DNA from: Pseudomonadota bacterium
GTDB taxonomy: Bacteria > Bdellovibrionota > Bdellovibrionia > Bdellovibrionales > Bdellovibrionaceae
Length of the DNA: 64,000 nt
Direction: 5' to 3'
Assembly: GCA_041178425.1 (NCBI GenBank)
Contig: JBEGVH010000009.1
Location: 1-64,000 of the forward strand
The notes below the pieces were generated by a model, which did no database searches, was not told the origin of the DNA, and was given only the letters and a program-made list of their open reading frames with translations. Of this stretch, positions 25,476 to 62,690 are shown piece after piece. The translations under genes were made by a program, and so were the position numbers. Numbering within the stretch: the stretch's first letter is position 1; every line of letters starts with the position of its first letter.

Positions 25476-26434
25476 TGGATAAGCAAAGCCTCTTTGCCCT
25501 CTTAAAAAAACTTCGTGGCCCATTTTTCTTATCGATTTTATTTACCTTGATTTGGTTTGTCGTTCTCTTTCCGACGTCCGACCTAGGAGATCTCGTTTCG
25601 ACAAAAGTTTCTGAATTCACTCAAAACCAAGTTTTTTTGCAATTTGATGAATTTAGCTTTGATGTTGCGCCTCCTGGAGTAGAGTTTTCGAATGTTTTTT
25701 TAGAATCACCGTTTTTTCCTGGTTTCAGCGCAGAAACTATTTCTATCGCTCCCTCCGTCTCGGGAATGATTTCTCAGAAACCCTATGGCACGGTCAAAGC
25801 GCAGGGCTTTCTTGATGGAACAATTTCGGCCACAGTAAAAAAAGGCCAAGCCACCGACGCGGGTGTCGAGCGCCATCGCCTTCTCTTAGACGTTGAAAAA
25901 ATAAGCCTTGCTTCGGTCCGGGAGATGTTAAAATGGACCACTGCTTTTGAAGGACGAATCAGCCTCACTGCCGACGGTCAGGGGGATCTCGCCCTCAATG
26001 AACAACCCGATGTTGATCTCAAACTAGAAGTTGATAAGTTTGCACTGCCTCCGGCCACCATCAATACAATGATGGGACCACTCACTCTTCCCGACATGAA
26101 ATTAGGAATCATCCATTTGAAGGGTCGTCTTTCTAACGGCAAGTTCTTGATTGAATCAGGCGAAATCGGAAAGAAACAAGACGATCTCTTTGGTAAAATA
26201 AAGGGCTCGTGGAATGTTCAACTGATGATGATGGGCGGACGCCCAGTTCCTCAACTTGGAGCTTATGATTTTGAAGTTGATTTAGTGGCCAACAAGCAGT
26301 TTCAAGCGAAAGCTGGGCTTTTCTTAAGCCTCCTCGATCAGTACAAAACCATGACGGGGGACGGAGCTCGTTACCAATTTAAAGTATCAGGGGCCGACCT
26401 CTACAACCCACCCAGTATCAATGCCACTCGATAA
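25475..26434 (+). CDS. gspN: T2SS GspN-like protein
   Basis: N-terminal TM ending LFP, beta-rich body; last gene of operon. Confidence 0.7.
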   Translation: MDKQSLFALLKKLRGPFFLSILFTLIWFVVLFPTSDLGDLVSTKVSEFTQNQVFLQFDEFSFDVAPPGVEFSNVFLESPFFPGFSAETISIAPSVSGMISQKPYGTVKAQGFLDGTISATVKKGQATDAGVERHRLLLDVEKISLASVREMLKWTTAFEGRISLTADGQGDLALNEQPDVDLKLEVDKFALPPATINTMMGPLTLPDMKLGIIHLKGRLSNGKFLIESGEIGKKQDDLFGKIKGSWNVQLMMMGGRPVPQLGAYDFEVDLVANKQFQAKAGLFLSLLDQYKTMTGDGARYQFKVSGADLYNPPSINATR

Positions 26435-26658
26435 GTGATCACTGCTCTATTTGTGGTCACTTCTTACATCTCAATTTAACGCTAAACGTTAATCCCTGTC
26501 CGGTTTCCGCAGAGCGGCTCTCCTCGTCTCTCAAATCCCCGTCAGTTGGTTTTCATAGGTCTTTGAATTTTGCAAAAAGCTCCTTGCACGCAAAACAATA
26601 ATCGGTGACAAGAATCTACTGATTAAAACTTGTTGCCCAATTTTTAGGAGGCTTATTT

Positions 26659-27108
26659 ATGGCTGGTATTAATAAAGTGATCTTGGTTGGACACCTCGGC
26701 AAAGATCCTGAAGTTCGTCAAATCGCTCCCAATCAAACGGTTTGTCAATTTCGTATCGCAACTAGTGAAAACTGGGTTGATAAATCCGGACAAAAACAAG
26801 AGCGAACTGAATGGCATAGCATCGTTGTTTGGGGGAAAATGGCTGATATCTGCGGAAAGTATCTCGCTAAAGGACGCCAAGTTTATGTCGAAGGACGTCT
26901 ACAAACACGCTCTTGGGAAGACCAACAAGGTCAAAAGCGCTACACAACAGAAATCGTTGCGAGCACTGTTCAGTTCCTTGGCGGTATGGGTGCTGAGCGC
27001 TCGGCGGGCGGAGCTTCTGCCAACGCTGGTTTTGGAAGCTCTAACTACGGCCCAACTGATTTTGGTCCAGAGCCAACATTCGACACCAACGACGAAATTC
27101 CTTTTTAA
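26659..27108 (+). CDS. ssb: Single-stranded DNA-binding protein
   Basis: [32 protein letters not shown]-terminal DEIPF. Confidence 0.98.
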
Positions 27109-27165
27109 ATAAATTCGAACCTTGGTCTAATTGTTTATTGCACCGAGACACGAGAGAATGGAAGA

Positions 27166-29024: not shown

Positions 29025-29035
29025 ACTCCACCACT

Positions 29036-30925: not shown

Positions 30926-30930
30926 TTTAT

Positions 30931-32316: not shown

Positions 32317-32378
32317 TTTTTTCTCCTAACAAAACCTGTGACTCTCGCCTTAACATCGAAGCATACTTATATCCAGAG

Positions 32379-33799: not shown

Positions 33800-33801
33800 T
33801 C

Positions 33802-36664: not shown

Positions 36665-36677
36665 TTAACCAGGAAGG

Positions 36678-39600
36678 ATGATTACTATGCGATGGTTTGA
36701 AAATTATTTGACACTGCTCTTGACCTCGATTCTCGCAATCTTGGCTCAACCACTCTTTGCAGCAGAAGAGGCCGTTCAATCCTTTAGTGTGAGCGGTACG
36801 CTTTACCAATCGGGATCAACCACTCCTCTTCACGACCCGGCTACCACCTTTAAAATACAAATCATTAGCCCCGACCGAGCATGCCTTCTTTACGAAGAGC
36901 AGCAAGTCGTTAATATTGGATCAACCGGCTACTTCAATATTCAAGTTGGTTCTGCAAGATCATCTAACAAAAGAACAGCAAACGATCCACGACACTCTAT
37001 GACACAGGTTTTTCAGAATGTCGGAATGATTTTTGCCAATAATGTGGGAGTCACTCAATGCCCGGGTGGACTTTATATTCCCAGTCCGGGAGACACTCGG
37101 TACGTTCGCCTCACAGTCACTCCGTCTTCCACCAATTCTCCTGACACTCTTTCGCCCGATATCGCTATTGGCTCGGTGACGTCTTCACTCGTTGCTCAAA
37201 GCGTTCAAGGCCTCGAGAGAAATAAAATCCTTCAGGTCAGAGAAAACAACTCTGTGTCTCTCACTCAAGGAAACCTCGAATGGCTATTTAATTCGACAAA
37301 CTTATCGAATCTACAAACTGTGCTTTCAGGTGGGCTTGTTTCAGCACCTGGCACCGGCGTGGCCCTTCCGCAATTTAATGGTGCTCCAGTAAACCTCAAC
37401 GAAGGCACGATCTGGTATGATACAAACGAAGACGTCATTAAATATTCCAAGGGCAGCTTGACCGCGCCCCTCACACTGGTGAACAGCACGTCGGGGACGA
37501 TCGGAGGATCGGTCGTGGTTGATACGACTGGTTATATAAGAACTTCCAATTACGTGAATGCAGGTTCTTTGTATTCGCCTTATATTTATGGAGGCTCTGC
37601 CCCTTCATCCAACCTCACAATAGATTCTACTTCCGACGCCACAAAAGGGAATATTATAATTGGCCCGACGACCAGCGCGGTTGGAATCGGCACGACGACG
37701 CCGACGGCAAAAGTCCATATCTCGGCGGGAGGCACCACACCCGGCAAAGCCCCGTTTAAGCTGACAAATGGTGGGCTGTTATCAACACCCGAAGCTGGTG
37801 CCATCGAGTACGATGGAACTAGTCTCTATTACACAGATACTTCAGGAACACCCGCTCGTCATACCCTGGCAACGGTTGCCGGAAGCGTTGCCAGTCTGCG
37901 AGGCGATGTGACAACTCTCGACGCCGCTGATCCTGCCCAACCAGGAACTTATAATGCGACGGTCGTGTCGGTCGGTGGATCATCGGCTACGCAAGTGAAT
38001 CAATCGCGCCTGGACACTGAGGCCGCCACGGCCAATAATAACGCAGAGACGATTGTAAAAAGAGATGCCTCAGGAAATGTGAGCGTCGGTGATTCTTCTC
38101 ACCGAAAAATCTATTTGAGAGATTCTGGTTCTAATACAGTTAGCTTAGAGGCCGCCTCAACGACTAGTTCTTACTCTTTAAAATGGCCCGCAGCGAAAGC
38201 AGATTCGACCAATAAAGTTCTGGCATCAGACACCGACGGTAATTTATCTTGGATTAACCTGGGTTCTGTCGATGGTAAAGTCAGCTTGACCTCCCAGGTA
38301 ATTGGCGTGTTGCCGATTGCCAATGGTGGTACGAACTCAGCTGTGGCTTTAAATAATAATCGTTTAATGTACTCCTCCGGTGGCGCCATTATTGAAATGG
38401 GCGAGTTGTCGACCGGTCAAATCGTTGTGGGAAAAACTGGAGACGCGCCCCAAATTAAAACTCTGAACGAAGATGTTGTTGTGGATGAAACAGGAAAAAC
38501 CACCATCAATAAGGTTAAAGGAACAACAGTAAGCGGTGTTGGATTACTTTCGGGCAATCTCCTGCAAAACACCTCTGCTAGTGCGATTGGTCTGAATAAC
38601 CTCCTTATTTCTAATGCCACAGGAGTTCAGGATTTTCCTGCCACAGGCGAAAAGGTGCTTCTCACAGTGGCAGGAATCCCAACTTGGACTGCGCAAAATG
38701 CCGATAGCTTTACCCAATATGTTCTATTAAATGGTCGAACCTCTGGCCAAACAATCAATGGGGGCGCTGATGCCAATGGCAATCTCACCCTAGAGTCTAC
38801 GAGCAACGGCACCAAAGGAAACATTCTTCTTTCGCCCAACGGGGGAAGCTCGGTGGCCGTTGGCACATCAACACCGCTCTCTAAGTTCTCTGTGGTAGGT
38901 GGTGCAATGAGTGCCGGGCCGCAAGGAACCAGCGCCGGTCAAGGTGGTGAGGTTCGTTTTTATGAACTCGGAGCTAACGGAAGCGACTATGTTGGATTTC
39001 GGGCGCCGGACGCTCTTGCGGGCACGAAAGTTTGGACTTTGCCGACAGCTGATGGAACTTCCGATCAAGTGCTTAAAACAGATGGTAGTGGTACGCTCAG
39101 TTGGTCCACTCTCAATACAGGACAAATAGGAACTGGTGCGGCAGACGCCACTAAATATCTTCGTGGCGACCGAGCATGGTCAGACTTTAATGCCGCAGCC
39201 ATTGGGTCTAATCTCACGGGCTACGCCACGGCATCGCCAGCATCAATCTCTTCAAGTGATTCCGTTCTCCAGGCCGTTCAAAAACTCGATGGGAACGATT
39301 CACTCTGGCTAAAAAAAGATGGCTCCCGCCCTCTCACAGGCAACTGGGACGCAGGCGCATTCAAAGCAACATTTAACAGTGTTCAGGTTGGATCTGCCGC
39401 CAACACGATCACAGGCCTCTCAACAATCGTTAACACTGGCACTCTCACCTTGCCAACGACTACAGATACGATCGTTGGTCGTGCGACCACCGACACTCTC
39501 ACGAATAAAACGCTCTCTGACTCAACCACAGTGGTGGCCAATGCGACGACACCCTCTAAACAACTAGCGTTTAGTTTGAGCAATCAATCCGAAAGCACCA

Positions 39601-42600
39601 CATTAACCATTTCGCCCACACAAAGCACAACTCAATCTTTGGCGATTCCTGATGTGCTTGGTAGCGATTCTTTTGTTACAAACAACACAACCGCCACACT
39701 CAAAGGAAAAACAATTAAGATCAGCGATAGCAACGTGATCGAAGGACTCACAAACTCTTCTATTAGCGACTCTGCTGCGATAGCTCGATCGAAGATGGCC
39801 GTCGATGCCAACAAAGGTGGTCTCGTCTATAACGACGCATCCACCGGCGCTCTCACAAGCCTCAATCCTGGGTCGGCTAATTATCCTTTATTGTCTGCAG
39901 GCACTAATGCCTCACCCGTCTGGTCGGGCATTAGTCTTGCCAATGACAACATTAAACTTCCACCTGGCAAGTCGATTAGTAATGATAGCGGCAACATGAG
40001 TATCTCGGCCGTGGGCGATATGACTGTCAACGCCAGCGGCGACACCACTGTGAAAGGCGCCAATACTTATATCGGTAACACATTGGCGGCTTCTGAAACC
40101 CGCATTTCTGGGGGAGCGAGTGGTGCCTCTTATCTTAAAATAAAATCAACGGGTGGTATTGAGTTCGCGGCCCCAAGTGGAATCACATCGGATGGGCCCC
40201 TCGGCCTAGGCACAACGTCACCAACGTCGATGCTCCATACGGTTGCAAGCGGGGCCAAGACTTCTGCTTACACAGGCAACTACCTTTCGAACACGGCCAC
40301 TTCAGGCACCGGATCCATTGCCAAGATTGGTCTCGATGTTCAATCGACTGGCACGTGGAATGGTGCTTCGGCGACGAACACTGGTCTTAATGTAAACGTA
40401 AGTGGCGGAACGACCAATTATGCTGCCACCTTCAATGGCGGCAATGTAGGTATCGGTACGACTTCGCCAACAGGCACGTTAGAGGTGAGCAGTACAAACA
40501 CAGGTTCGTCTAATTCTTATGGTGTGAAGATCACACCAACCTATAATCAAACGGGTTCAGCAGCTAATACTGACCTTTTAATCAATCGCACGCAGACAGC
40601 GGTTGGCAGTGGCACCCAAAATTTGATAGACGCGCAGGTCAATGGCACTTCAAAATTTAGCGTTGATAACGGTGGTAACGTAACAGTCGTTGGGGTGCTT
40701 ACTGCTGCGAATATTTCGGGTAATTCCTCCACCGCCACCAATTTATCGAACGGTTCACTAGGAGCAATTCCTTATCAAAGTGCTGCAAGCACTACGGCGA
40801 TGCTCACGGGCAACTCAACCACCACAAAAAAATACCTCACGCAAACGGGAACTGGGAGTGCTAGTGCAGCACCAGCTTGGAACACCATTGATACTGGTGA
40901 TATTACTTCGGGAATTTTGGGTGTTGACCGTGGCGGGACTGGCGTGGGCACCATCACTGGCATTATCAAGGGAAGTGGTACCTCGGCATTTACGGCGGCA
41001 ACGGCAGGAACTGACTACTCGGTGCCGGCCAATGTGGAATCATTTACAGGTGCGAAGACATTTGATAACGATAAAATTTTACTGAAAGGTAGCAGTTCAG
41101 GAACTACGACTTTCCATTCGAACAACTCAACTGCTACTAATTTCACTCTTAATTTTCCTGCCACTAATGATACCTTAGTGGCCAGAAATACGACGGACAC
41201 TTTAACCAATAAAACGCTCTCCGATTCAACAACCCGATTTGCTAACGTGACTGATGCCACAAAAAAATTAGCTTTTAGTTTGGGCGGACAAACAACCAAC
41301 ACCACACTTACGATCACGACCGCTCAGTCCACAGATCAATCACTATCCCTTCCAAATGTAGGAGCCAGTGATTCGATTGTTACCAACAATACGACCGCAA
41401 CCCTCAAAGGAAAAACCATTAATATTGGAGCTCCCGATAATAACGTTATCACTGGACTCACCGACTCGAGTATTAGCAACTCAGCCGCTATCGCTCGTTC
41501 AAAAATAGCAGCCGACACCAGCGTAAAAGGTGGATTAGTTTACAACGATGCCATTTCAGGAAGTCTTGCGAGCCTCACGCCAGGAACAGCTGGTTTACCA
41601 CTGATTTCGGGCGGTACTAGCACCGCTCCAGGCTGGTCGACCGTCAGTCTTGCAAGCGGCAATGTCACGCTCCCAGCGAGTGGCAACATCACCAACGTAA
41701 GCGGAAACATGAGCGTCTCGGCCGTTGGCAACCTCACCGTTACGGGTGGTGCAAGTGCGAATACCTATGTGGGCAACACAGGCTCAAACACCTATGTTGG
41801 CAACAGTACCGCGGGAACGACCATGATTTACGGTGGATCTTCATCCAGTATTCTGGTGGACTCTAGCGGTGTAACGATGACAGGTACCTCCATTAAAGCT
41901 CCGAACTTTATGCCAACGGGATCCACCAAACCCACCGATGGAATGTATCTTCCCGCTGCAAGCACTGTTGGTATTTCAGCGGGCAACACTTTGGCGGCTC
42001 AATTCACTTCAACAGGTTCGTCCTTCAGTGGAAGTGTGGGCATTGGCACCACAACTCCTGGCGCCTCGCTTGACATCACACCCGCTGCAAACACTATTGG
42101 ACTTCAAAGCACGGGCTATTCCCTCACGGGTGCCAACGCTCAGTCACTTGTGAATCTCTCTGGCACCTGGAACACCTCAGGCACACCGACCTTAATCAAA
42201 GCTAATGTGACGGACACTTTAAGCAATGCGAGCTCCCTCCTACTCGACTTGCAGGTGGGTGGTACTAGTATGTTTAAGGTGAATAAAGCAGGCAACTTGA
42301 CGAATACGGGATCTGTGACGGCGACGGGTGGCTTTTATGGGCCGCTAACGGGTAATGTGAGTGGTAATCTAACGGGCAATGTGATTGGTAATATTTCTGG
42401 CGCAACGGGAGTTTTTTCGACGTCGGTCACATCACCGCTGCTTCTTGGAGGAACAACAACAACCTCTTCGTTGACTTACAAAACCACTACGGCGGTGGGA
42501 ACTAGTGGAGCTGATCATATATTTCAAGTCGGCAACAACGGCGGTACCGAAGCCATGCGTATACTTAATTCTGGCAACGTGGGTATCGGCACAGCAACTC

Positions 42601-45600
42601 CTGGTACAGCCCTCGAAGTAAAAGGTTCAGTTCGAATCCAGAATTCAGCCACTGCTTATGTCACTTTCGCCTCCTCTTCATCAGCAGGCACCCCCACTTA
42701 TACTTGGCCGACGACGGGACAATCTTCGAATTATTTTTTGAAAACAGATGGGAGCGGTAACTTGAGTTGGGCGCAACCAAGTCTCTCTAATATGATCACA
42801 GGAACGCTCCCAGTGGGTAATGGCGGTACGGGTACGACCACGTTCACATCCAATGGTATTTTGTACGGCAACGGCGGCTCGGCGATTCAGGCCACCGCCG
42901 CTATGACAGATGGACAGTTCGTTGTTGGGAAAACTTCGAATGCTCCACAAATTGTTACCATGAGTGGCGATGCTACCGTTAGCAACTTAGGAGCTGTCAC
43001 AGTTCAAGGCCTCAGAGGCAAAACAGTCGATTCTACGTTGCCGACGACCAGTGGCCAAGTTCTCCGATACGATGGAACCAAGTGGGTTCCTAATTTTGTA
43101 TCGATGTTTGACCTTCGATCGACAGTGACGGGATCGGCAACATTTAATTCAGGCTCACAGGGATGTACTGCTGGCCAAACTCTAACCTGGACGTCTGCGA
43201 CGGATAATCTCAGTTGTACGACAATTGCCATAAATGATTCACAACTTAATTTTTCCGCCTCTCGCACAGCCAACACCTTCCTCGCAGCACCTAATGGAAG
43301 TGCAGGAGCTGCATCATTCAGAACGATCGCAACGGCCGATGTTCCTTGGGCGACACCTGGATCAATAGGATCAACAACCGCCGCGAGCGGTGCCTTTACA
43401 ACTCTCACAGCATCAGGGGCAACAACACTCACTAACAACACAGCCTCGACGAGTTCGAGCACGGGTGCACTTATCGTCACAGGTGGCTTGGGCGTGGGTG
43501 GCGCGATTTTTTCTGGAAGCACCATAGCAGCCACGGGCGCCATCACCTCTAACTCTAGTATTAGCAACACCATCACGACGGCTGCCAACTCGGGGGCCAA
43601 TTATAACTCACCAGCGCATAATTTTGTTGGTACCTACTGGAATGGCTCTGCCAGTGCAAACGACTCATGGTCAATTACAAACGTCTTGGGCACAGGAGCT
43701 AATCCTACGGCCACATTGACCTTGGTCCACACCGGATCGAGTGGCACAGCAACAGTGTCGACCCCCAACTTAACAGTTAGTGGTACCTTAACGAACACGG
43801 GCTCTTTTACGCAGGCGTCTTCCAACACCACCGGAAGTGCTAACGCAATAACTGCTAATTCTCTAACGAGCGGAAATATCCTCTCACTGTCTTCGACTTC
43901 GACAACTGCTGCAGCAGGAAACACCGGTTTGAACATTGCAATTTCTGGCACCAATGCCACCGCAGGGATTAGTCGTTACGGGCTGAAGTCAGTAATGACA
44001 TCGGCGGGAAGCACTAGCACCAACGTGGCCGGTTACTTTTCTGCGACTGGCGGTACGACCGCGAATTACGGCTTGATTGTAGAAAATGGGAATGTGGGAA
44101 TCGGAACGACAACTCCAAGTACCGCTCTCCAAGTAAACGGTACAGTGACAGCTACAAGCTTCGCCGGAAGCGGTGCGAGTTTGACTGGAATTACCGCCTC
44201 AACCAATGCCAATTTAACAGGCCCGATTACAAGCGTTGGTAATGCAACCTCGGTTGCTTCACAAACTGGTACCGGAACAAAATTTGTGATGGACACGAGC
44301 CCGACGCTAGTGACTCCGACTCTCGGTGTGGCATCAGCAACCTCCATAAATAAGGTTACCATAACAGCACCGGCCACAAGTGCCACACTGACGATTGCCA
44401 ATGGAAAGACACTTACCATCAATGACTCCCTAACCCTGACAAGCGGAACGCAAGGGGGAGTACCATACTATTCGTCGACTGGCGCACTTTCCTCGTCACT
44501 GGCGGGTACTTCTGGTCAATTATTGACATCCGCGGGAACTGGCGCAGCGCCAACTTGGATATCATCGGTTCCCATTGCGAATGGCGGTACCGGAGCAAGC
44601 ACACAACAGGCAGCGATCAATGCTTTAACTGGCATTCAAACATCCGGAAGATATTTAAGGAGTGATGGAACAAATGCGACACTTTCGGTTATTGCAGCTG
44701 CTGACCTGCCGACAGTTTACATCGGCACCACAGCGATTCCACTGAGCAGAGCCTCAGCCTCACAATCGTTGACAGGCATAAGTATTGACGGTTCAGCCGC
44801 GTCCTTCACGGGATCCTTGAGTGGTGATGTCACTGGAACACAAGCTGCCACGTCTATTGCTGCCACGACCGTTACTGGTAAGGCATTAACAAATTTTAGT
44901 TCGACCACTGGGACTGTGACGGCCTCAGATACGATTCTCTCAGCCATTAATAAATTGGTTGGGAATATGGCAACTTATGCCCCACTCGCAAGTCCAGGAC
45001 TTACGGGCACACCAACAGCTCCCACTGCTGCGGTCAATACAAATACAACTCAAATAGCAACTACCGCATTTGTTTTGGGACAAGCAGGAGCTGCAACACC
45101 AATCGTCAATGGCACGGCCGCCGTGGGTACGGCTACAAAGTTCTCGCGCGAGGATCATGTGCACCCAACAGACACGAGCCGTGCACCAACGGCAAATCCG
45201 ACATTTACTGGTAACGTAAACATGCCAGGCACTGGTATATGGAATTCCTCCGGAAATGTGGGGATAGGAACGACATCTCCTGTAGATAGACTCTCCTTCG
45301 GCACCCCGACAGCCTCAGCGACGACAGCTCTCGTCAATTTATCCAATACTGCTCTTGTAAGCGGTTCAGCCTCTGGAACTTACATAGGAGCGAACCCAGC
45401 TTCTGCTGGGGCCGATTTCATAAACTATCAGGTCGGCAATACATCGAAATTCAAAGTGGATTCCGCCGGAAACGTAACTGCTGTCGCCTTTCTTTATAGT
45501 TCTGATCGGCGACTCAAAACGAATATCAGTCAGATAGAAAACCCAATAGAGACAATTCTAAAGTTAAAGGGTGTAAACTTTATTTGGAAAGATTCAAAAA

Positions 45601-45920
45601 AGCCAGAAATGGGATTTATCGCTCAAGATGTTGAACGAGTGCTGCCAAATCTAGTTAAAACTGATGAGCAATCTGGATTCAAGAGCGTTCAATACGGCAA
45701 CCTTATTGCTCTTGCTATTGAGGGCATTAAGCAATTAAAGTCGACCATCGATACGATGTTTATTACTCAATCTCAACAGATGAGTTCAATCAAGCAAGAA
45801 AACAAAGAGCTTAAGGATCAAATGGAGAGATTAACGGAAGAGAATAAAACCAAGGAACAGGAACTTAAAGAACTGAAACTTCGCATGGACAAACTAGAAA
45901 AGGCCCTTCAAAAAAACTAA
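36678..45920 (+). CDS. Giant phage-tail-fibre-like adhesin with C-terminal S74 intramolecular chaperone (Bdellovibrio MAT-type)
   Basis: Signal peptide; N-terminal CLLYEEQQ domain; many GNVGIGTTxP and QVLKTDGSGTLSW motifs; SDRRLKTNI at about 45501, GFIAQDVE, terminal coiled coil. Confidence 0.9.
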   Translation: MITMRWFENYLTLLLTSILAILAQPLFAAEEAVQSFSVSGTLYQSGSTTPLHDPATTFKIQIISPDRACLLYEEQQVVNIGSTGYFNIQVGSARSSNKRTANDPRHSMTQVFQNVGMIFANNVGVTQCPGGLYIPSPGDTRYVRLTVTPSSTNSPDTLSPDIAIGSVTSSLVAQSVQGLERNKILQVRENNSVSLTQGNLEWLFNSTNLSNLQTVLSGGLVSAPGTGVALPQFNGAPVNLNEGTIWYDTNEDVIKYSKGSLTAPLTLVNSTSGTIGGSVVVDTTGYIRTSNYVNAGSLYSPYIYGGSAPSSNLTIDSTSDATKGNIIIGPTTSAVGIGTTTPTAKVHISAGGTTPGKAPFKLTNGGLLSTPEAGAIEYDGTSLYYTDTSGTPARHTLATVAGSVASLRGDVTTLDAADPAQPGTYNATVVSVGGSSATQVNQSRLDTEAATANNNAETIVKRDASGNVSVGDSSHRKIYLRDSGSNTVSLEAASTTSSYSLKWPAAKADSTNKVLASDTDGNLSWINLGSVDGKVSLTSQVIGVLPIANGGTNSAVALNNNRLMYSSGGAIIEMGELSTGQIVVGKTGDAPQIKTLNEDVVVDETGKTTINKVKGTTVSGVGLLSGNLLQNTSASAIGLNNLLISNATGVQDFPATGEKVLLTVAGIPTWTAQNADSFTQYVLLNGRTSGQTINGGADANGNLTLESTSNGTKGNILLSPNGGSSVAVGTSTPLSKFSVVGGAMSAGPQGTSAGQGGEVRFYELGANGSDYVGFRAPDALAGTKVWTLPTADGTSDQVLKTDGSGTLSWSTLNTGQIGTGAADATKYLRGDRAWSDFNAAAIGSNLTGYATASPASISSSDSVLQAVQKLDGNDSLWLKKDGSRPLTGNWDAGAFKATFNSVQVGSAANTITGLSTIVNTGTLTLPTTTDTIVGRATTDTLTNKTLSDSTTVVANATTPSKQLAFSLSNQSESTTLTISPTQSTTQSLAIPDVLGSDSFVTNNTTATLKGKTIKISDSNVIEGLTNSSISDSAAIARSKMAVDANKGGLVYNDASTGALTSLNPGSANYPLLSAGTNASPVWSGISLANDNIKLPPGKSISNDSGNMSISAVGDMTVNASGDTTVKGANTYIGNTLAASETRISGGASGASYLKIKSTGGIEFAAPSGITSDGPLGLGTTSPTSMLHTVASGAKTSAYTGNYLSNTATSGTGSIAKIGLDVQSTGTWNGASATNTGLNVNVSGGTTNYAATFNGGNVGIGTTSPTGTLEVSSTNTGSSNSYGVKITPTYNQTGSAANTDLLINRTQTAVGSGTQNLIDAQVNGTSKFSVDNGGNVTVVGVLTAANISGNSSTATNLSNGSLGAIPYQSAASTTAMLTGNSTTTKKYLTQTGTGSASAAPAWNTIDTGDITSGILGVDRGGTGVGTITGIIKGSGTSAFTAATAGTDYSVPANVESFTGAKTFDNDKILLKGSSSGTTTFHSNNSTATNFTLNFPATNDTLVARNTTDTLTNKTLSDSTTRFANVTDATKKLAFSLGGQTTNTTLTITTAQSTDQSLSLPNVGASDSIVTNNTTATLKGKTINIGAPDNNVITGLTDSSISNSAAIARSKIAADTSVKGGLVYNDAISGSLASLTPGTAGLPLISGGTSTAPGWSTVSLASGNVTLPASGNITNVSGNMSVSAVGNLTVTGGASANTYVGNTGSNTYVGNSTAGTTMIYGGSSSSILVDSSGVTMTGTSIKAPNFMPTGSTKPTDGMYLPAASTVGISAGNTLAAQFTSTGSSFSGSVGIGTTTPGASLDITPAANTIGLQSTGYSLTGANAQSLVNLSGTWNTSGTPTLIKANVTDTLSNASSLLLDLQVGGTSMFKVNKAGNLTNTGSVTATGGFYGPLTGNVSGNLTGNVIGNISGATGVFSTSVTSPLLLGGTTTTSSLTYKTTTAVGTSGADHIFQVGNNGGTEAMRILNSGNVGIGTATPGTALEVKGSVRIQNSATAYVTFASSSSAGTPTYTWPTTGQSSNYFLKTDGSGNLSWAQPSLSNMITGTLPVGNGGTGTTTFTSNGILYGNGGSAIQATAAMTDGQFVVGKTSNAPQIVTMSGDATVSNLGAVTVQGLRGKTVDSTLPTTSGQVLRYDGTKWVPNFVSMFDLRSTVTGSATFNSGSQGCTAGQTLTWTSATDNLSCTTIAINDSQLNFSASRTANTFLAAPNGSAGAASFRTIATADVPWATPGSIGSTTAASGAFTTLTASGATTLTNNTASTSSSTGALIVTGGLGVGGAIFSGSTIAATGAITSNSSISNTITTAANSGANYNSPAHNFVGTYWNGSASANDSWSITNVLGTGANPTATLTLVHTGSSGTATVSTPNLTVSGTLTNTGSFTQASSNTTGSANAITANSLTSGNILSLSSTSTTAAAGNTGLNIAISGTNATAGISRYGLKSVMTSAGSTSTNVAGYFSATGGTTANYGLIVENGNVGIGTTTPSTALQVNGTVTATSFAGSGASLTGITASTNANLTGPITSVGNATSVASQTGTGTKFVMDTSPTLVTPTLGVASATSINKVTITAPATSATLTIANGKTLTINDSLTLTSGTQGGVPYYSSTGALSSSLAGTSGQLLTSAGTGAAPTWISSVPIANGGTGASTQQAAINALTGIQTSGRYLRSDGTNATLSVIAAADLPTVYIGTTAIPLSRASASQSLTGISIDGSAASFTGSLSGDVTGTQAATSIAATTVTGKALTNFSSTTGTVTASDTILSAINKLVGNMATYAPLASPGLTGTPTAPTAAVNTNTTQIATTAFVLGQAGAATPIVNGTAAVGTATKFSREDHVHPTDTSRAPTANPTFTGNVNMPGTGIWNSSGNVGIGTTSPVDRLSFGTPTASATTALVNLSNTALVSGSASGTYIGANPASAGADFINYQVGNTSKFKVDSAGNVTAVAFLYSSDRRLKTNISQIENPIETILKLKGVNFIWKDSKKPEMGFIAQDVERVLPNLVKTDEQSGFKSVQYGNLIALAIEGIKQLKSTIDTMFITQSQQMSSIKQENKELKDQMERLTEENKTKEQELKELKLRMDKLEKALQKN

Positions 45921-45982
45921 GGGGGACGTAGTCCGAATTCCTACTTCGCAGTACATTGATATTCGGACTCTTCGGACGTCCC
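45921..45982. repeat. Nested hairpin immediately upstream of the RAYT-like gene
   Basis: GGGACGT/ACGTCCC outer arms and AGTCCGAAT/ATTCGGACT inner arms. Confidence 0.7.
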
Positions 45983-46035
45983 ATTGCTTTATATTCGAAT
46001 CCAGCTCGTCACACTTCTTGCTAAAATAGCAAAGC

Positions 46036-46800
46036 ATGAGAATAAAACGATCACAACAACTATGGCCCGACAATGGCACCGTCCATCTTTACTGGCGTTG
46101 CCATAATAAAGAATACTACTTAGAAAATAATTTTTTTAAAGACGTTTACATGTCTTGCCTGGAGAAGGGTCTGGAACATAGACCCTCAACTCACCTAACT
46201 AAACTTAAACAAAAGTGTAAGATACATGCCTACTGCGCCATGAGTAATCACTTTCATCAGGTGGCGAGCTATCGTGACGGTTCGACCCATCTATCGCTAT
46301 TTATGCGTCAGGCGCACGCCCTTTTCGGCATCAAGTATAACCGTGCTAAACGCCGGAGTGGAAAGGTTGCCGAAGGCCGCCCGAAGACACCGCTCATTCA
46401 GGATCCCCGCCATGAAATGCTTGTTCACTTTTACGTCGAGGCCAACCCCATTCGCGCTGGGTTCAGAAACATTGAGAATTTGAAATACTACCAATATTCA
46501 AGTTATGGTTTTTTTGCCTACGGGAGAAAAACAAAGTACACTCATCTATTAACTTTGCCTGATTGGTATATGAAACTAGGAAAAACATTAAAAGAACGGC
46601 AACAAAAATATAGAAAACTCTTTAGGCAATACCTAGGGGAGCATAGACCATCTTTTTCTTGCCGATTCAAACAAGCTTTTATTGGCGATGCGCAATGGAT
46701 ACTTATGTCGATGGTGCGACTTAAAAAAGATAATCGAGAATTTGAAAATGAAAGTTATAACATTCAAAGTGATCTGAGTATTCTAGGGAACACTGCCTGA
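46036..46800 (+). mobile_element. REP-associated tyrosine transposase-like (Y1/HUH) protein
   Basis: H..RCHNK, HAYCAMSNHFH (HUH), YN...RSG...EGR, YVEANPIRAG (catalytic Tyr), YQYSS, WYxxLG...RQ..YR. Confidence 0.85.
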
Positions 46801-47030
46801 TTTCGTTATGACTCAAGTCTTTTGATCCCCCTTGGTTAAAATGGAGTCTCATATTGGGTCGTAATTTTTACCTCGATGGTAATTTCCACTGAGATACGCG
46901 ACCTCGGTGGTGCTCGATTCGTCCTCACGTGAGACACATGATAATTAAAACACCCTATCAACCTAAATTGTTGGCATAATTAGAGTTGAATAACGTTAAA
47001 ACTACCGTTTCCGTTTCTGTGGGGTTTAGA

Positions 47031-49778
47031 ATGTCACGTTTTATCACGTTGCCTGACTTTGCGAAGTTATCGAATTTGGCATTGGTTGTTTTTATTTTGA
47101 TTAATTCCGGATGTACCAAAATAGACTTCACCCAAGAACTTTCTAAATTGAGCGCCAATGCAGTGCCAACTGAAACGCCAAACCCAAACCAAACTTCACC
47201 TCCAATTGAAAATGAGGATACAAACAGCAAAGATGCCGTTTGCGGCGAAAGTCATTTAAAAGAACTTACGTCTGCCCCATCAGAAGCCATTAGCTTGTGT
47301 AGCAATGGTTCTCCCAGTGCTGTGACCGAAAATAATGAGAAGACCAAGTATATTTGGAACTGTAGCGGACTACCAAATGGACCCCTCGTTGAATGCTATG
47401 CCTTGATTTCTAATTCCTCTACAATGCCGCCACGACCAACTCCAAGCGCCTCTCCGACTCCAGACCCGGCTCTATTGGTTAATGGTTCTTGTGGTGGAAG
47501 TAACGGACAGTATTTGAGCTCCGTCCCCACAACTGGGCTTTGTGCAAGTGGCACCGCGAGTGCCGTTGATTCGACTGCAGGTATTGCAGTGGTCGGCGTG
47601 AGCACTACTAAAACATACAAATGGACCTGTAACGGCAGTGGTGGTGGTTCTAGTGCTACTTGCAGCGCCACCCAAAAATTAGCGCCTCTCTGTGGCTTGA
47701 GCAATGGTCAAAATGTTTCTACAACTCCCACCCGAGAACTATGCTCCCAGGGAACAGCGAGCGCCGTTACTCTCGGTTCAAACAAATACACCTGGAGTTG
47801 CTCGGTTACAAACGGACCCACTACTGAAAACTTAGTCTGCGCGGCTAACCAGGTTGTCAATGGGATCTGCGGAACTAGCAACGGAGCATTCACACCCTCC
47901 GCACCAACTACAAATCTTTGTGTCAGCGGAGCTCCGTCCCCAATTCTCACGAATTCAGCGGTATTTCCATCAAAGTATAATTGGAATTGTAACGGATTAA
48001 ATTCTGGCACAACGTCATCTTGTAGTGCTATTCAATCGATTGATCCGGCCTGCGGATCAAGCAATGCTCAAAACTTTGAGGCAAAACCTACAAGCAATCT
48101 CTGCGCTTCCGGACAGGCCAGTGAGGTCACCCTTTCGGATGGCAAATTCAAGTGGAGTTGCACCACAAATACAACGATTACCAACACCCAAATGTGCTCG
48201 GCAAATCAAGTGGTGAATGGCACTTGTGGTGCTAGTAACGGACAATATGTGAGCTCCGTCCCCACTACCGGGCTCTGCACGAGTGGTATCGCGAGCGCCG
48301 TTGATTTGCGCGTAGTTGCAACATTGATCCGTGTGAGCACTCCTAGTCAAATATACAACTGGACCTGTAACGGCAGCGGTGGTGGATCTAACGCTTCTTG
48401 TAGTGCCTCACAAAAATTAACTGCCCTCTGTGGCAAGAGTAACGGTCAAACTTTCCTTACCCCTCCTGTTAACGATCTTTGCTCTTCGGGAAACCAGGGA
48501 ACCGTTGCCACATCGGCCACGTCGTTCGACTGGACTTGTTCAGTAACCAATGGAACGTTAACCGAAATGGTTTCTTGTTCCGCGAAAAGACTGAATATTC
48601 CGGTTTGCGGGGCGTTTAAAGAAGTGAGTTTGGCGTCGCAGACGCTGCCGAGCTCCGTCCCCACGGGATTGGGAGAATTTGTCAGGTATTCGGGAGCGCC
48701 GATTGGTCAGCGATTTATCGTTCCGAAAGAATCTTGTGCCATCATTGAGGCACCGCGACTCCCCAACCTAATAGGCTTTCAGCAACTCTATTCGGTGGTG
48801 GTTGATGCTCCGTCGACTGATTATACCATCCAAGGTTTTTATGGCATCGAAGTTTTAAAAAACACTAAAACCGGTCAGATCATCACCGTACAACTTCCCC
48901 AACCCCCAGCAGGCCCCAACAATATGGGCATCACCGTGACCTTCACCAACGGAAGTATATCTCTCACCTCCCACCAAACCCCCATCACAACTGCGTGGAC
49001 CGCTTGGGTCACTCAAGGCGTCGCTTTCGGAGGCGATACCTCTTTGTGGAATAATCCCTCGAGCACGATGATCCCGGGCCTCATTCGCTCTGTCTCGGCT
49101 TTGAATCTGGGTTCCTATCTCACCGCGAACCCCTCTCTCCTCAACACGCAGGAAACCGCGAACAAGTATTCCTTCCCGTCGCCTTCAACACCGATCGCCC
49201 AATCGATCTGTCCGAATCCACGAATTCTTAATCTAGATTGGCAGGCTGCGTCCCCAACCACCGCTCAATCCAACGAACATCTTATTACCTTTGGGAACCC
49301 TCTAAAAAATACATTTATCATTGGCAACAGCTCTTGCCTAACCGTTGTTGCCCCACAACTCCCCTTTGATGGTTCGGGTTTTCAGCAACTCTATGCGGTA
49401 GCCCTCCATGGTTCCTCCTCGCAATACACCGTGAGCGGCTACCACGGCATGCTCGTTCTTACAAATATCTTTACCAACCAGCAAATTCACCTACAAATTG
49501 CAAGGCCACCGATCGGTCCTAATAACTATGGAATCAACATAAAATTCACGAATGGTAGCATTTCGCTTACCACTTGGAGAAATGAAACAACTTGGAAATC
49601 GTTTATCACTAGAGGCGTCCCTCTGAACGGCGACCTCTCCGCGTGGAACAACTCCGCAGCCCTCGAACTTCCGGCAACACCACCTCTGGGCACCCCATTG
49701 TCACTTTCCACTTACCTGGGTGCAAACCCCTCACTTCTCAATACGACGGATACGTCAAACATTTATAGTTTTCCTTAA
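47031..49778 (+). CDS. Lipoprotein with seven 4-Cys ~55-aa repeats and a duplicated C-terminal domain
   Basis: Lipobox INSGC; repeats NGxCGxSNG..PTxxLCxSG..WxCxG..CSA; two copies of GFQQLY...PPxGPNNxGI..FTNGSISLT. Confidence 0.85.
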   Translation: MSRFITLPDFAKLSNLALVVFILINSGCTKIDFTQELSKLSANAVPTETPNPNQTSPPIENEDTNSKDAVCGESHLKELTSAPSEAISLCSNGSPSAVTENNEKTKYIWNCSGLPNGPLVECYALISNSSTMPPRPTPSASPTPDPALLVNGSCGGSNGQYLSSVPTTGLCASGTASAVDSTAGIAVVGVSTTKTYKWTCNGSGGGSSATCSATQKLAPLCGLSNGQNVSTTPTRELCSQGTASAVTLGSNKYTWSCSVTNGPTTENLVCAANQVVNGICGTSNGAFTPSAPTTNLCVSGAPSPILTNSAVFPSKYNWNCNGLNSGTTSSCSAIQSIDPACGSSNAQNFEAKPTSNLCASGQASEVTLSDGKFKWSCTTNTTITNTQMCSANQVVNGTCGASNGQYVSSVPTTGLCTSGIASAVDLRVVATLIRVSTPSQIYNWTCNGSGGGSNASCSASQKLTALCGKSNGQTFLTPPVNDLCSSGNQGTVATSATSFDWTCSVTNGTLTEMVSCSAKRLNIPVCGAFKEVSLASQTLPSSVPTGLGEFVRYSGAPIGQRFIVPKESCAIIEAPRLPNLIGFQQLYSVVVDAPSTDYTIQGFYGIEVLKNTKTGQIITVQLPQPPAGPNNMGITVTFTNGSISLTSHQTPITTAWTAWVTQGVAFGGDTSLWNNPSSTMIPGLIRSVSALNLGSYLTANPSLLNTQETANKYSFPSPSTPIAQSICPNPRILNLDWQAASPTTAQSNEHLITFGNPLKNTFIIGNSSCLTVVAPQLPFDGSGFQQLYAVALHGSSSQYTVSGYHGMLVLTNIFTNQQIHLQIARPPIGPNNYGINIKFTNGSISLTTWRNETTWKSFITRGVPLNGDLSAWNNSAALELPATPPLGTPLSLSTYLGANPSLLNTTDTSNIYSFP

Positions 49779-52605: not shown

Positions 52606-52614
52606 TTCTAATAT

Positions 52615-54692: not shown

Positions 54693-54722
54693 TAATACCC
54701 CCTATTCGCAAGGTAGGTTATT

Positions 54723-57681: not shown

Positions 57682-57697
57682 CGGGTACCAATCCCTT

Positions 57698-58789: not shown

Positions 58790-58794
58790 TTTAC

Positions 58795-60444
58795 TTACCC
58801 TTTACTATCGAATTCTAAAGATGGCGCAAACTTTACAACTTTAGTTTGACGAACCACGCGGGCAACCCCCACTCGATTCCCACCCTGACCCATGACTGTG
58901 GTCAAAGCCTGAAGCGATCCCTTCAATAGAGACTCTGGCGACGTCGCTAACTGAGGGTAAGCACTCACTCCAATGCTCACGGTAATGGCACCAGAGACTG
59001 GGGGAATGTCTACGCTCTCGAAAGCTTGCCGAATTCGTTCTGCCAAAATTGTAGCTTCTTGTGGCTTGAGATTGTTCGCAAGTAAAGTAAATTCGTTGAG
59101 CGCCGTACGATAAAAACCATCGCCAGATCGCGTAAATTTCTTGCCCGTCACAGCGAGAGCACGAATCACACTATTCACCGCCGTAGGACCGTATTTTTCT
59201 TCGATGTAATGAAGACGATCAATACTAATTCTCAAAATCGCCAAACCCATTTGGTTTCTTTGCAAGTGATCGATCCGATCATTCAGCACTTCGTGAAAAT
59301 CTTCGAAGGAATGGATGTGCTCCAAAACACCTTCGAGTTCTAGCTCCATTTGCTTTTTCAAAAAGGTGAATCGCTCGAAACTGACACGAAAGAGAGCAAA
59401 GCGGTTATTAAAATGGATGGTGTTAAACGGGTCTAAGGTATCGCCAAAAAAGACAAAAAGGCCATCCACGTCTTCTCGAACCATCAGAGGTTTCACATAA
59501 CAATCTTCAACCTTAAAAACATCTTGGAGTAGCTTGTTCAAACTACCGAAACCCCGTGGGGAGACCAGCAAATTCTGAGCCTCTAAAATTTCTTGGCTCG
59601 ACAAACGCACACCCGCCCCTTTTATAAGTTCTACGGGAATGCCACAACCATGGGTCGCAACTAACAGCTGAACCGGCTCTAAATACTTAAAGTAAAGAAC
59701 CTTGGCACCTTGTGAGCAATAATCTTCTAAGGAATGAAAGAAGACTTGTAACAGATCTTCTCGGTTTCGCGTATTTTCATACAACGTAAGTAAATTAGCG
59801 ATATCATCTTCAGCAGTGGACGTTGCTGGGGTGGGATTCGCGGTCTCCTCACCAGACAACAAAAAGATTGAATCACTCTCTTGTTCTTGCTTTTTAATGG
59901 CTTCAGACTCAACAAAGCCTTCGAGCATTGCTGCTGATCGCGCATCAATGAGCGGTTGATTCTCTTCAACTTCTCGAACTCGTGCCCTTAAAAGATCCGT
60001 TTGTTTTTTAAGTTCCTCAGAGTCTTGAACCAAATTTTTATTGAACAGTTTTAAAACCACTCGTTCAAGCGCATTATCAATAGACCACTCCACAAGACCA
60101 ACAAGGTGATCTTCTTGAGAGAGGTAATCAAGAACGCCGTAATCTCGATATTCACCAAACTTGTAACGAGAGAACGCCGAACCGATTAAAATAAAATGGG
60201 TTTGATTGGCAATTTCGAGGCATTCTGCCAAAAAATCATCAATCGCCCCAACAACCAGAGAAAGATCTACGATCACCAAGTGACTTGGACTTTTCTTAAA
60301 CTCCTCAAAAAATCGATCGGTGTTGGTCGAATGAAAAAGGCTGTGCCCTTTTTCCCGAAGATGAACCTTGATTTCTTGATAATCTTCTGAAAAAGGAACC
60401 AAAAAGTGCAAATCAAACTGTGATCGGTACTGGGTTAAATCCAC
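58795..60444 (-). CDS. Degenerate GGDEF-domain protein (CdgA-like c-di-GMP receptor candidate)
   Basis: N-terminal REC-like region; C-terminal GGDEF fold (AERIR, TVSIGVSAYP, GGNRV) with the active site reading ALNEF and an upstream RSGD I-site. Confidence 0.75.
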   Translation of the reverse strand: MDLTQYRSQFDLHFLVPFSEDYQEIKVHLREKGHSLFHSTNTDRFFEEFKKSPSHLVIVDLSLVVGAIDDFLAECLEIANQTHFILIGSAFSRYKFGEYRDYGVLDYLSQEDHLVGLVEWSIDNALERVVLKLFNKNLVQDSEELKKQTDLLRARVREVEENQPLIDARSAAMLEGFVESEAIKKQEQESDSIFLLSGEETANPTPATSTAEDDIANLLTLYENTRNREDLLQVFFHSLEDYCSQGAKVLYFKYLEPVQLLVATHGCGIPVELIKGAGVRLSSQEILEAQNLLVSPRGFGSLNKLLQDVFKVEDCYVKPLMVREDVDGLFVFFGDTLDPFNTIHFNNRFALFRVSFERFTFLKKQMELELEGVLEHIHSFEDFHEVLNDRIDHLQRNQMGLAILRISIDRLHYIEEKYGPTAVNSVIRALAVTGKKFTRSGDGFYRTALNEFTLLANNLKPQEATILAERIRQAFESVDIPPVSGAITVSIGVSAYPQLATSPESLLKGSLQALTTVMGQGGNRVGVARVVRQTKVVKFAPSLEFDSKG

Positions 60445-62690
60445 TATAACCTCTCCTCCGGTCTGGGAATCTGTACTTTCATACTAGCAAGAGGTTCTTC
60501 TTTTTTCTTCAATCTTTTTACAGGACTAGAGGAAGGTGCAGACTCCACACTACGAATCACTTCTTGGGCGATCTGCTCAGCTCGACTTAAATCTTGAGAG
60601 GAGGAGCTCGTGGGCTTCGATTCGCTAAAACCAATGCGTCCAAACTGAAAATCGCCATCAGCATCATCTTCGTCATCAAAAAGCTCCATGGCGTTTGAAG
60701 AAGAACTACCAGAGAGAGCATCATCATTTCGCAGAGAGCTTGGAAACAGCGGACTTGTTGGTATAGCCAGCTCTTCTGTGTTTGTGGCACTCACCGCGCC
60801 CGTGCCAATCGGTGTCGTTAAAGGAGACATCTCAGGCTCCTCGAAAGCAGCAATCGCGAGAGCCTCCATACTTGGTGTCTTTAATTCACGAAGGGGGCGC
60901 GCCGTTTGGGAGCGATCACTGAGACTTTGCGCGATTTCCTGACTCATGGGAATCTTCAGGGTGATGCAAGTGCCTTCTCCCATTCGCGACTTTACTTGCA
61001 CGTCGGCCTTGTGCTGGCGAAACACACCAGCGGCCATGGCAAGTCCCAGTCCACGATGATCAATCGTTGATCGCGTTGTAAAAAAGGGCTCAAAAACTTT
61101 TTGAATATTCTCAGGAAGGATTCCTTCCCCAGTGTCTTCAATTTCAAGAACAATAGAACCATTTTGCGACCGAGCTCGCAGAGTCAGGTTTTTTCGAAGA
61201 TTCTTTTCCATTGCTTCGACGCTATTTCTTAGCACGGCTCCTAGCGCGGCTTTAAACTCATCGACATCACACTTGATATTGAGATCGGGTTGAATCTCGC
61301 GAATAATCTTAACGCCTCCTCGAAGAAAGGCGCCCTCAACGCTTCTGAGGGCTGATTCAACCAATTCAAAAAGAGGAATCGTTACTGAGGGCACTTGAGC
61401 TTGGCCGCTGTACTGCCCGATACGATCAAGAACATCTCGAGCGTTTCGAACTTCGGTTTCGATGGCTTGTAAGGATCCGCCCTGCGGATTTAACCGGGCA
61501 ATTTGAACATGACCAAGAACCGAAAGAAGCGGGGCTTTCAAGGCGGCTACCACTTTTTCTAAAACACGCAACGAAACCTGCGGTTCAGGAAGCTCCGTCC
61601 CCACCGATGTGGGAGAGTTGAACATCGAAAAGGGCCGCTGCGGAAGCGACGGAACTGGGGACGGAGCTCCTTTGGGCTGCTCCGCAATCACACCATTTTC
61701 AAACCCCACTTTTCTAGATTCAAACACTGGTTTTTCAACAACTTTTTCTACGACTCGTTCAACAATTCGCTCCACCGGCACTTCACGAATGACCACTTCT
61801 GGCTGTCCCAATTTTTGCAAAAGATGCTGAGCCAACCCACCACCCAGCAGGGACAGAGCCAAAATAATCAACAAACCTTGGCCATAAAACATCCAATCCG
61901 TCGTCACCCAAAGGTCTTTTCTCCACTGGCTCACGAGAATGAGCTTCGATGCCGGAATTTTAACAAAGAACGACAGAATATCCTCACCTCGGACATCCTT
62001 TGTTTTAATAGAACCAAAAAGATTCTTATCTTGTCGGATGAGATCATAAGACTTGTCACCGATCATCGAATTACCCAGGTATTCAGACACCGTATGCGCC
62101 AAGGTTAAGCCAGAGTCAGTTGTTAAAAAGGCATGAATCCCCTGGGACTTTAAGCGATCCACTAGATCTTGAAACATTCCTTGAGGCAAAATACCAACAA
62201 GACGAACGTTACTGACCTGGCCTGATCGTCGATCTTTCACTTTTGCCGGTATCGTTAAACTAGACCGAATTTCGCCCTCTGCCACTTGGCTGGCATAGTA
62301 CCCAACGCCTCCACCCTCGAGACCTTGGGTATTGAGCTTTTTCGCCCAAGCTTGTGAGAACTCGTCTTTCAATAAGCCATGGGTTTGTACTTTCCATAGA
62401 AAGTTTAACGAATGACTATCCATCGCTCCCACGGCTAAAAAAGGAGCCAAGGCTTTTTGAGCTTCTTCAAAAAGCCCAGCCTCCATCAAGGTGGCCACTC
62501 GACCCAACTGATTTTTCATTTTTTCTAAATCAGTACTTAACAAATCGCTCATTAAATCGAGTTGGCTTCGAGAATTTTCGGTTAACCAGTGAATACTGAC
62601 TTCTTTTTCTCGACGAACAAAAAGAATAATAGACAAGAGACCCGTCAACAAGATCGTCGCGACGAAAACACCTATAATTTGTTTCTTCAT
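60444..62690 (-). CDS. Membrane sensor kinase-like protein (Cache-like periplasmic domain, HATPase) lacking the canonical phospho-His
   Basis: Two TM helices; H-box reads VAALKAPL; intact N box, DTGEG, FEPFFT and GLGL; acidic C-terminal tail. Confidence 0.75.
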   Translation of the reverse strand: MKKQIIGVFVATILLTGLLSIILFVRREKEVSIHWLTENSRSQLDLMSDLLSTDLEKMKNQLGRVATLMEAGLFEEAQKALAPFLAVGAMDSHSLNFLWKVQTHGLLKDEFSQAWAKKLNTQGLEGGGVGYYASQVAEGEIRSSLTIPAKVKDRRSGQVSNVRLVGILPQGMFQDLVDRLKSQGIHAFLTTDSGLTLAHTVSEYLGNSMIGDKSYDLIRQDKNLFGSIKTKDVRGEDILSFFVKIPASKLILVSQWRKDLWVTTDWMFYGQGLLIILALSLLGGGLAQHLLQKLGQPEVVIREVPVERIVERVVEKVVEKPVFESRKVGFENGVIAEQPKGAPSPVPSLPQRPFSMFNSPTSVGTELPEPQVSLRVLEKVVAALKAPLLSVLGHVQIARLNPQGGSLQAIETEVRNARDVLDRIGQYSGQAQVPSVTIPLFELVESALRSVEGAFLRGGVKIIREIQPDLNIKCDVDEFKAALGAVLRNSVEAMEKNLRKNLTLRARSQNGSIVLEIEDTGEGILPENIQKVFEPFFTTRSTIDHRGLGLAMAAGVFRQHKADVQVKSRMGEGTCITLKIPMSQEIAQSLSDRSQTARPLRELKTPSMEALAIAAFEEPEMSPLTTPIGTGAVSATNTEELAIPTSPLFPSSLRNDDALSGSSSSNAMELFDDEDDADGDFQFGRIGFSESKPTSSSSQDLSRAEQIAQEVIRSVESAPSSSPVKRLKKKEEPLASMKVQIPRPEERL

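Follow-up and report, generated by a model that had tools for sequence, protein, structure and literature searches.

TIRtrons, the closest described relatives of the element considered here, consist of a gene for a TIRYT (a RAYT-like HUH/Y1 transposase) set between terminal inverted repeats (TIRs) (Di Nocera et al., 2013, PMC3733652); TIRYTs fall mostly into subclass 2.1 of the TnpA-Y1 enzymes (Quentin et al., 2018, PMC6006769), the group also treated as RAYT Group 1 (Bertels et al., 10.1101/119735). We analysed a window of 64,000 nt (positions 1-64000 of contig C9, JBEGVH010000009.1, of genome G000, GCA_041178425.1) from a Bdellovibrionales-type bacterium, in which an earlier note had picked out a word recurring inside unrelated genes and tied it to a RAYT-like transposase. 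That tie held: the word is the outer tip (RGGGACGGAG), that is the outer 10-13 nt, of the TIR of a TIRtron, an element of ~1.05-1.3 kb in this lineage. Lone copies of the tip accumulate within about 10-30 kb of a resident element and, judging from alignments with orthologues, usually replace an equal number of host bases. The element in the window has two recognizable parts:

45922..45982, plus strand: left end of the TIRtron, a decayed terminal repeat GGGGACGTAG with a local stem-loop
46036..46800, plus strand: TIRYT gene, RAYT-like HUH/Y1 transposase of 254 amino acids (aa), with NHFH (H72, H74) and YVEANP (Y133)

On the features tested the element is a TIRtron. As in the known group, a Y1/HUH gene lies between TIRs starting GGGGAC, the protein has NH[YF]H, Y---NP and SS motifs and about 240-255 aa, some duplicates are recent, and TIR dimers resembling miniature inverted-repeat transposable elements (MITEs) occur elsewhere in the genome. 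Set against the description of subclass 2.1 (NH[YF]H, Y---NP, SS, about 238 aa), our protein has NHFH, YVEANP, YSSY and 254 aa; the subclass has a C-terminal helix-turn-helix-like domain, and here the predicted model ends in a helical tail, with no Pfam helix-turn-helix match. The consensus GGGGWSAS, given for the majority of described TIRs, differs from GGGGACGG here at position 7 and is fitted by the end of the C40 paralogue, GGGGACAG. Against NF047646 the transposase gave an E value of 7.6e-9, under the family cut-off, and the PF01797 profile matched none of six transposase copies; the structural model (pLDDT, predicted local distance difference test, 82) had 4ER8 as its top fold match (E 5.4e-6). 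H72, H74 and Y133 are conserved in an alignment of 11 rows, with H74 replaced in one. A contig scan with a single sequence returned two loci only; later searches used the alignment, and the genome holds five further matches and additional pieces at contig ends. The C6 and C26 element copies are 98% identical, with further pieces at contig ends, and copies of this type form a young subfamily mobile in this genome.

Sister copies are bounded by GGGGACGGAG on the left and CTCCGTCCCC on the right. The position of the left end at 45922, which the earlier note had listed as a partial copy of the word, matches the intact GGGGACGGAG ends, with one base decayed, and in a conspecific run from another study (X3) this end is intact and carries a 30-nt tandem end duplication. 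The stem-loop at 45922..45982 is stable (-14.6 kcal/mol, z -3.9). A conserved subterminal hairpin was rejected as a general feature by folding z-scores, with 11 of 53 left ends at z<-2 and a median z near 0 for 53 left and 43 right ends. No right end stands at the usual 270-370 nt beyond the window transposase; the first right-oriented copy, at 47517 inside the next gene, is the nearest current stand-in for it. Among 63 element loci from this genome, relatives and metagenomes, the end or a close variant flanks most, and RGGGACGGAG usually precedes the gene by ~50-330 nt and follows it at a distance of 270-530 nt. Both terminal repeats were located at 35 loci of the transposase clade, where elements measure 1.02-1.29 kb, and target-site duplication, the mark of classical inverted-repeat-flanked insertion sequences, was absent from 28 of these 35, the longest being 4 nt, the same as in shuffles.

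Several observations concern the element and its immediate surroundings. Eleven of the 16 strain differences of X3 in 17.5 kb fall within the element (window 45929-47088), and the X3 transposase alleles show no consistent match to the C26 or C9b paralogues; on a 2.5-kb contig piece of the same strain, seven of seven differences lie at 61455-61608, beside the copy at 61591. These clusters point to local hypermutation or recombination tracts. A nested insertion is seen in G004 (L042:4626-4949), with an element end lying inside another copy of the transposase gene. Upstream, window 36678-45920 encodes a 3080-aa protein with a Peptidase_S74 chaperone domain at its end and a stop codon abutting the element's left end; it is probably a fibre or adhesin.

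The 12-mer AGCTCCGTCCCC occurs seven times in the window and in none of 100 dinucleotide shuffles. The earlier note had counted the same seven, placing two exactly (26357 and 61591) and five (47516, 47929, 48251, 48650 and 61656) one base below the 12-mer; its other partial copy, at 11147, matches 9 of 10 bases, is the sole such 10-mer listed for this genome and is indistinguishable from chance. The copies and their hosts are:

26357..26368, minus strand: lone tip in gspN, in left-end orientation, apparently a same-length substitution (G-D-G-A)
25475..26434, plus strand: gspN (type II secretion protein N), TIGR04411 above cut-off
47517..47528, plus strand: first right-oriented tip, in the Cys-repeat gene (SSVP), 724 nt beyond where the transposase match ends
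47930..47941, plus strand: lone tip in the Cys-repeat gene, giving GAPSP at a place where GTASA is the commonest reading among homologues
48252..48263, plus strand: lone tip in a duplicated repeat unit (SSVP), paralogue of 47517
48651..48662, plus strand: lone tip (SSVP) at the junction of the Cys repeats and the C-terminal region
46986..49778, plus strand: host gene with Cys-rich repeats, its called start probably 47031
61591..61602, plus strand: lone tip in a kinase linker (GTEL), outward, absent from four same-genus orthologues
61657..61668, minus strand: lone tip in the same linker (GAPSP), facing the 61591 copy, the sole inward-pointing exact copy in the window
60444..62705, minus strand: membrane protein with a HATPase_c domain, histidine-kinase-like
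11147..11156, minus strand: partial copy (9/10) between genes, 35 kb from the transposase and of uncertain membership

Across these three unrelated genes the 12-mer reads GDGA (gspN), SSVP three times and GAPSP once (Cys-repeat gene), and GAPSP and GTEL (kinase), exactly the four readings noted before, and its independence of frame is supported. Five to six copies are independent, 47517 and 48252 lying in duplicated repeat units that are 78% identical; about five had been estimated. When codons were redrawn with the proteins held fixed, 0.013 copies were expected near the transposase against the seven seen, which occupy seven of the nine compatible peptide slots within 20.5 kb of it. In the whole 3.06-Mb genome the 12-mer has 16 copies against 0.12 expected, a second word, GGGTCTGTCCCC, has 17 against 0.04, and CTCCGTCCCC is the most over-represented 10-mer (34 against 1.55). 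The repeated word seen by the earlier note was confirmed, and its copies cluster round elements. An assembly artefact was ruled out: one contig spans the stretch and the runs of two other studies concur, their contigs having the same sequence at the six motif sites compared.

The host proteins appear to tolerate the tip in flexible regions, as had been suggested. The gspN site is colinear in four same-genus orthologues, which have, for example, GCA GAT GGT GCT where this genome has GGG GAC GGA GCT. The product of the Cys-repeat gene has no Pfam or NCBIfam match and is probably a surface protein; among 538 homologous Cys repeats SSV stands before proline in three, with Ala in 298, and GAPSP in none. 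The 12-mer is perfect in both of two paralogous Cys repeats, which elsewhere differ in 15 of 46 same-residue codons. The kinase sites sit in a linker that aligns poorly to orthologues.

Since the distances in the window had been chosen after the fact, other genomes were used to measure clustering, in a survey of 43 loci of at least 8 kb. Over 630 kb of flank, 158 lone copies lay more than 1 kb from the gene against 1.1 expected, and six control words gave four matches; 115 of the 158 are within called open reading frames (ORFs), and 25 of the 43 loci have at least one. The copies also follow the sequence variant of their own element. AGCTCC 12-mers lie within 20 kb of the window transposase (1.3% of the genome) in 7 of 16 cases. 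GGGTCT 12-mers, which match the right end of the divergent C40 copy, are found no more than 11 kb from that copy in 9 of 17 cases, and neither word occurs near the other's element. Bases inside the core matched the end of their own locus with a mean of 1.60 against 0.80 when permuted, a value reached in none of 2000 permutations (the 47517 copy served as one of the 'ends', and tandem copies within a locus were left uncollapsed). In G238 an element ending AGTGACGGAC has the same variant in neighbouring ORFs, and a 4.3-kb stretch of L101 contains 13 copies of the variant GGGGACAGAG. No lone tips lie within 10 kb of the young element copies C6, C26 and C9b. The idea of a minimal palindrome scar made of two head-to-head cores was rejected, since lone copies do not extend further into the palindrome than real ends do.

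The distribution among genomes of the order follows the transposase. Only 8 of 301 genomes have at least ten RCTCCGTCCCC (counts read from tables, both draws being taken as the same by their handles), and these comprise 7 of the 11 carriers of the transposase clade and 1 of the 290 genomes without it. The congener G003, which lacks the element, has no RCTCCGTCCCC. Of the four carriers without enrichment, the three inspected mostly have other end variants. High counts of SWCCGTCCCC in G005, G017 and G019 were set aside as largely unspecific: in G005 and G017 the first base is variously C, G or T, and the count in G019 is near control. Genome-wide enrichment of an AGTGAC variant is weak against control (35, 49, 26 and 20 vs 20, 26, 27 and 16), and only the local cluster in G238 is convincing. 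As a control, a further clade of TIR-flanked RAYTs from the same order was analysed: 20 loci were fetched, three without a recognised ORF and 15 with a scored inverted repeat, and they gave 13 distant copies in total, with two loci having at least two. The lone-tip behaviour is not common to all TIRYTs. The loci of the second clade (L168-L187) have longer inverted ends, several beginning AGGTGCC or AGGTA.

How the tips sit in their hosts was read from orthologues. Of 42 sites with an orthologue at 55-97% identity, 33 were colinear, seven were not (indels or no alignment) and two were shared, so that, the shared ones set aside, 33 of 40 sites with a usable orthologue are colinear and consistent with replacement at the same length rather than the insertion that had been proposed. 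In a first pass with orthologues down to 25% identity, 29 were colinear, 19 had indels and 11 had no orthologue. At the 33 colinear sites, orthologue identity in the 10-mer is 54.5% against 65.3% in composition-matched controls. The loss is uneven: the three inner bases stand at 53% against 67% (P=0.0006) and the next three at 58% (P=0.03), whereas the three outer bases are at 65.5% against 66.9% (inner/outer asymmetry P=0.016). The drop extends over about 13 nt and is abrupt on the outer side but gradual on the inner. The spectrum of single mismatches agrees with this, core positions 2-7 being at background (17 vs 12 expected) and positions 8-10 eightfold above it (40 vs 5). Essential genes are among the targets. 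The congener G002 has three copies in pheT, three in ligA, four in a dus gene and two in gatA, none of them more than 5 kb from an element. One pheT site reads CCA GAG GGG CAA (PEGQ) here and GGG GAC GGA CTT (GDGL) in G002, and PEGQ is found in three of four congeners. Beside the C40 element of this genome, fumarate hydratase has QT where four orthologues have EP, EA, EP and KP, exactly inside the motif. Target duplication was not enriched around lone copies once tandem copies were set aside, and neither two-tip scars nor target duplications were found in ORFs.

Lone tips are also oriented. With tandems collapsed, 106 point outward, like the element end on that side, and 40 inward; by locus, 18 are outward-biased against four, with four ties (p=0.004). 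Downstream, the bias holds on either strand of the host gene (17:5 and 46:4), and in the window six of seven exact copies are outward. A tandem repeat crosses the junction after 60 of 422 tips; on the inner side this is so for 22 of 422, and at random sites for 7 of 3000. Whole neighbouring cores account for 19 of the 60 stutters, and the others start most often 6 or 3 nt inside the tip. In G144, which has 83 copies, contigs C45, C80, C116, C122, C133 and C135 bear tandem tip arrays with 14-30 nt periods, which we read as stutters grown into minisatellites.

These features set the lone tips apart from the repeats of other RAYT systems. The RAYT/TnpA-REP pair (E. coli 4ER8; PMC8266576) has in common with them the fold, the presumed chemistry and the spread of repeats by a resident transposase, but the element here is without the GTAG-tagged hairpin and its lone copies are 10-13 nt, mostly unstructured (no hairpin in six of seven window copies, z above -2), largely intragenic, local and substitutive, while REPs (repetitive extragenic palindromes) and REPINs are GTAG- or CGTC-tagged hairpins of 20-40 bp that are mostly extragenic. 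Intragenic REPs and the palindromic elements (RPEs) of Rickettsia are likewise repeats inside working proteins, tolerated in loops, but they are in-frame insertions (20-30 aa for REP dimers), whereas the tips mostly add nothing (PMC3733652). The suggestion that a REP-like repeat invades ORFs by insertion is not supported, given the mostly missing hairpins, the missing target duplications and the mostly unchanged length.

We propose that lone tips arise, as seems the better bet on present evidence, by one-ended strand transfer in cis that is resolved as a short in-register patch. The transposase would act in cis on single-stranded DNA and nick the outer edge of one element end, and the nicked end would be joined to target DNA close by on that strand. 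This would be a one-ended transposition that aborts, its register set by the covalent joint. The remaining element strand would form a flap, which host nucleases would cut back to about 8-15 nt; it would then be sealed in place of the original bases, with replication fixing the patch, selection retaining patches that the protein tolerates, and patches themselves acting as ends that may be re-cut to give short tandem stutters. One-ended transfer on the same strand would explain the cis range, the polarity, the sharp edge and the fixed register, flap trimming and sealing the variable inner edge and unchanged length, and no lethal intermediate would be needed in essential genes. Which strand is cut is not readable from sequence alone. 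Prime editing resolves a flap in a comparable way, as a nick-anchored, in-register short replacement, and in IS91/ISCR one-ended transposition one end acts on adjacent DNA. Unlike in prime editing, no reverse transcriptase or RNA template would be involved here, the donor DNA would come from an end of the element itself, and capture of flanking genes as in IS91/ISCR is not shown. HUH enzymes form a 5'-phosphotyrosine and leave a 3'-OH able to prime synthesis or to attack another phosphotyrosine (PMC8266576). The patches are most likely a mutagenic by-product of a selfish element and not a host signal.

Another possibility, which we consider unlikely, is that the tips are footprints of local hopping, a whole element inserting nearby, excising imprecisely, leaving one tip and removing a similar length of host DNA. 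A young mobile subfamily is at hand, the seven sites with indels or failed alignment would fit, and orphan tip clusters on C31, C17 and C29 could be former element homes; however, the three sites each in pheT and ligA would need a lethal insertion stage, a symmetric element offers no cause for outward polarity, and scars with two tips are lacking in ORFs. It is also improbable that the enzyme nicks near-cognate sites in cis and that host recombination or template switching then copies a nearby end as a short gene conversion, with no strand transfer. The ~55% match of orthologous sites to the motif invites such templated repair, but a prior match is also expected from protein selection and five to six matching bases are very little homology; the perfect 12-mer in diverged paralogous Cys repeats looks as if refreshed, and the strain differences beside the 61591 copy would fit, whereas the sharp outer and graded inner edge suits a joint better. 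That the tips arose by point mutation and were selected as binding sites, whether operator-like or serving to organise the chromosome locally, has very little probability: exact copies are kept in diverging repeats and older resident elements have more copies than young ones, but four to seven coordinated changes would be needed, many non-synonymous and in arbitrary places that differ between sister species, the position of the element is not conserved, and G003 has neither element nor motif. A genome-wide uptake, methylation or replichore signal like DUS or HIP1, which the earlier note had entertained, is largely refuted and barely credible. The word is the top over-represented 10-mer, is frame-independent and recalls HIP1, proposed to arise via a repair process on near-matches (PMC4390886), but amounts to 34 non-palindromic copies in 3 Mb, clustered at elements with a polarity centred on them, and is at background level in 289 of 290 genomes without the element.

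DNA uptake sequences (DUS) are frame-independent intragenic words that are genome-wide and far more abundant; the tip is not high-copy, genome-wide or conserved in the lineage. HIP1 resembles it as a frame-independent word inside genes thought to come from near-match conversion, but is genome-wide and far more abundant, whereas the tip is confined near the element and tracks its variant (PMC4390886).

Several points weigh against one-ended transfer with patch resolution. No intact AGCT-type right end stands beside the window transposase as donor. GDGA also appears in the nearest GspN relative (87%) and in some of the distant ones, and the gspN site could be old or partly chance. No pair of alleles before and after patching was found, four runs having no listed difference inside six motifs in 43-63 kb; the orthologues compared are only 55-92% identical, and some of the 33 colinear sites lie far from elements and may be background. 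At eighteen of the 43 loci lone copies are absent; in five of them the ends belong to another variant, which is itself represented by one lone copy or none. In this genome 9 of 16 12-mers are away from any visible element, and the genome G218 (91% complete) has 13 dispersed RCTCCGTCCCC (12 with A) on its contig C1 and no match to the transposase alignment, an unexplained exception. Upstream polarity inside ORFs is weak (25:20), and the stutter starts 6 or 3 nt inside the tip could imply an internal nick.

Other copies of the tip were seen in different settings. Three tips, representing both variants, lie in an isochorismate-synthase-like gene at G000:C31:186357-187616 in element-free surroundings, one position being common to the G004 orthologue. 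At G000:C40:58667-58801 there is a MITE-like unit of 135 bp with 23-bp inverted ends starting with the same tip, its inner ~95 bp recurring at six other places without tips. Dimers of the variant GGGGACAGACCC occur at G000:C41:9598-9747 and C6:16211-16258, one a non-autonomous MITE-like pair and one an inward-facing pair. Elements lie directly downstream of pheT both at G000:C9:113578-114754 and at G002:C20:14860-15714, in opposite orientation and only 57% alike; the former adjoins tRNA-Pro and its pheT has no tips. This position is possibly an insertion hotspot.

TIRtrons are known; the local patch-writing proposed here for their tips is apparently undescribed. In the description of TIR families in PMC3733652 these are singles, dimers or clusters, with no mention there of lone tips substituted into neighbouring ORFs; our literature search, whose coverage stopped short of Figure 9 of the TIRYT paper, supplements and most subscription papers, found same-length writing of TIR tips nowhere described and no experimental work on TIRYTs. 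In one preprint TnpA-REP is proposed to drive the diversification of prochlorosin genes, with its own note that there is no strong evidence either way. The present loci bear on the question of how RAYT-family enzymes create new repeats, and offer a readable record of products (tract of about 10-13 nt, sharp edge, cis range, polarity, stutter starts) that predicts cut sites. If the patches are real, a mobile element alters the amino acids encoded by essential genes, pheT and ligA among them, with no insertion, and comparative genomics would take the patches for ordinary clustered substitutions. More tentatively, and somewhat short of an even chance, the TIRYT clade may be a natural short-patch writer, overwriting 8-15 nt nearby with its own end sequence in one length-neutral step through a flap like that of prime editing, with a DNA donor. 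If that is true, short-patch writing would be a new class of targeted local mutagenesis, possibly reprogrammable via the inner bases of the end, and a compact enzyme that writes short in-register patches would be of interest to genome editing.

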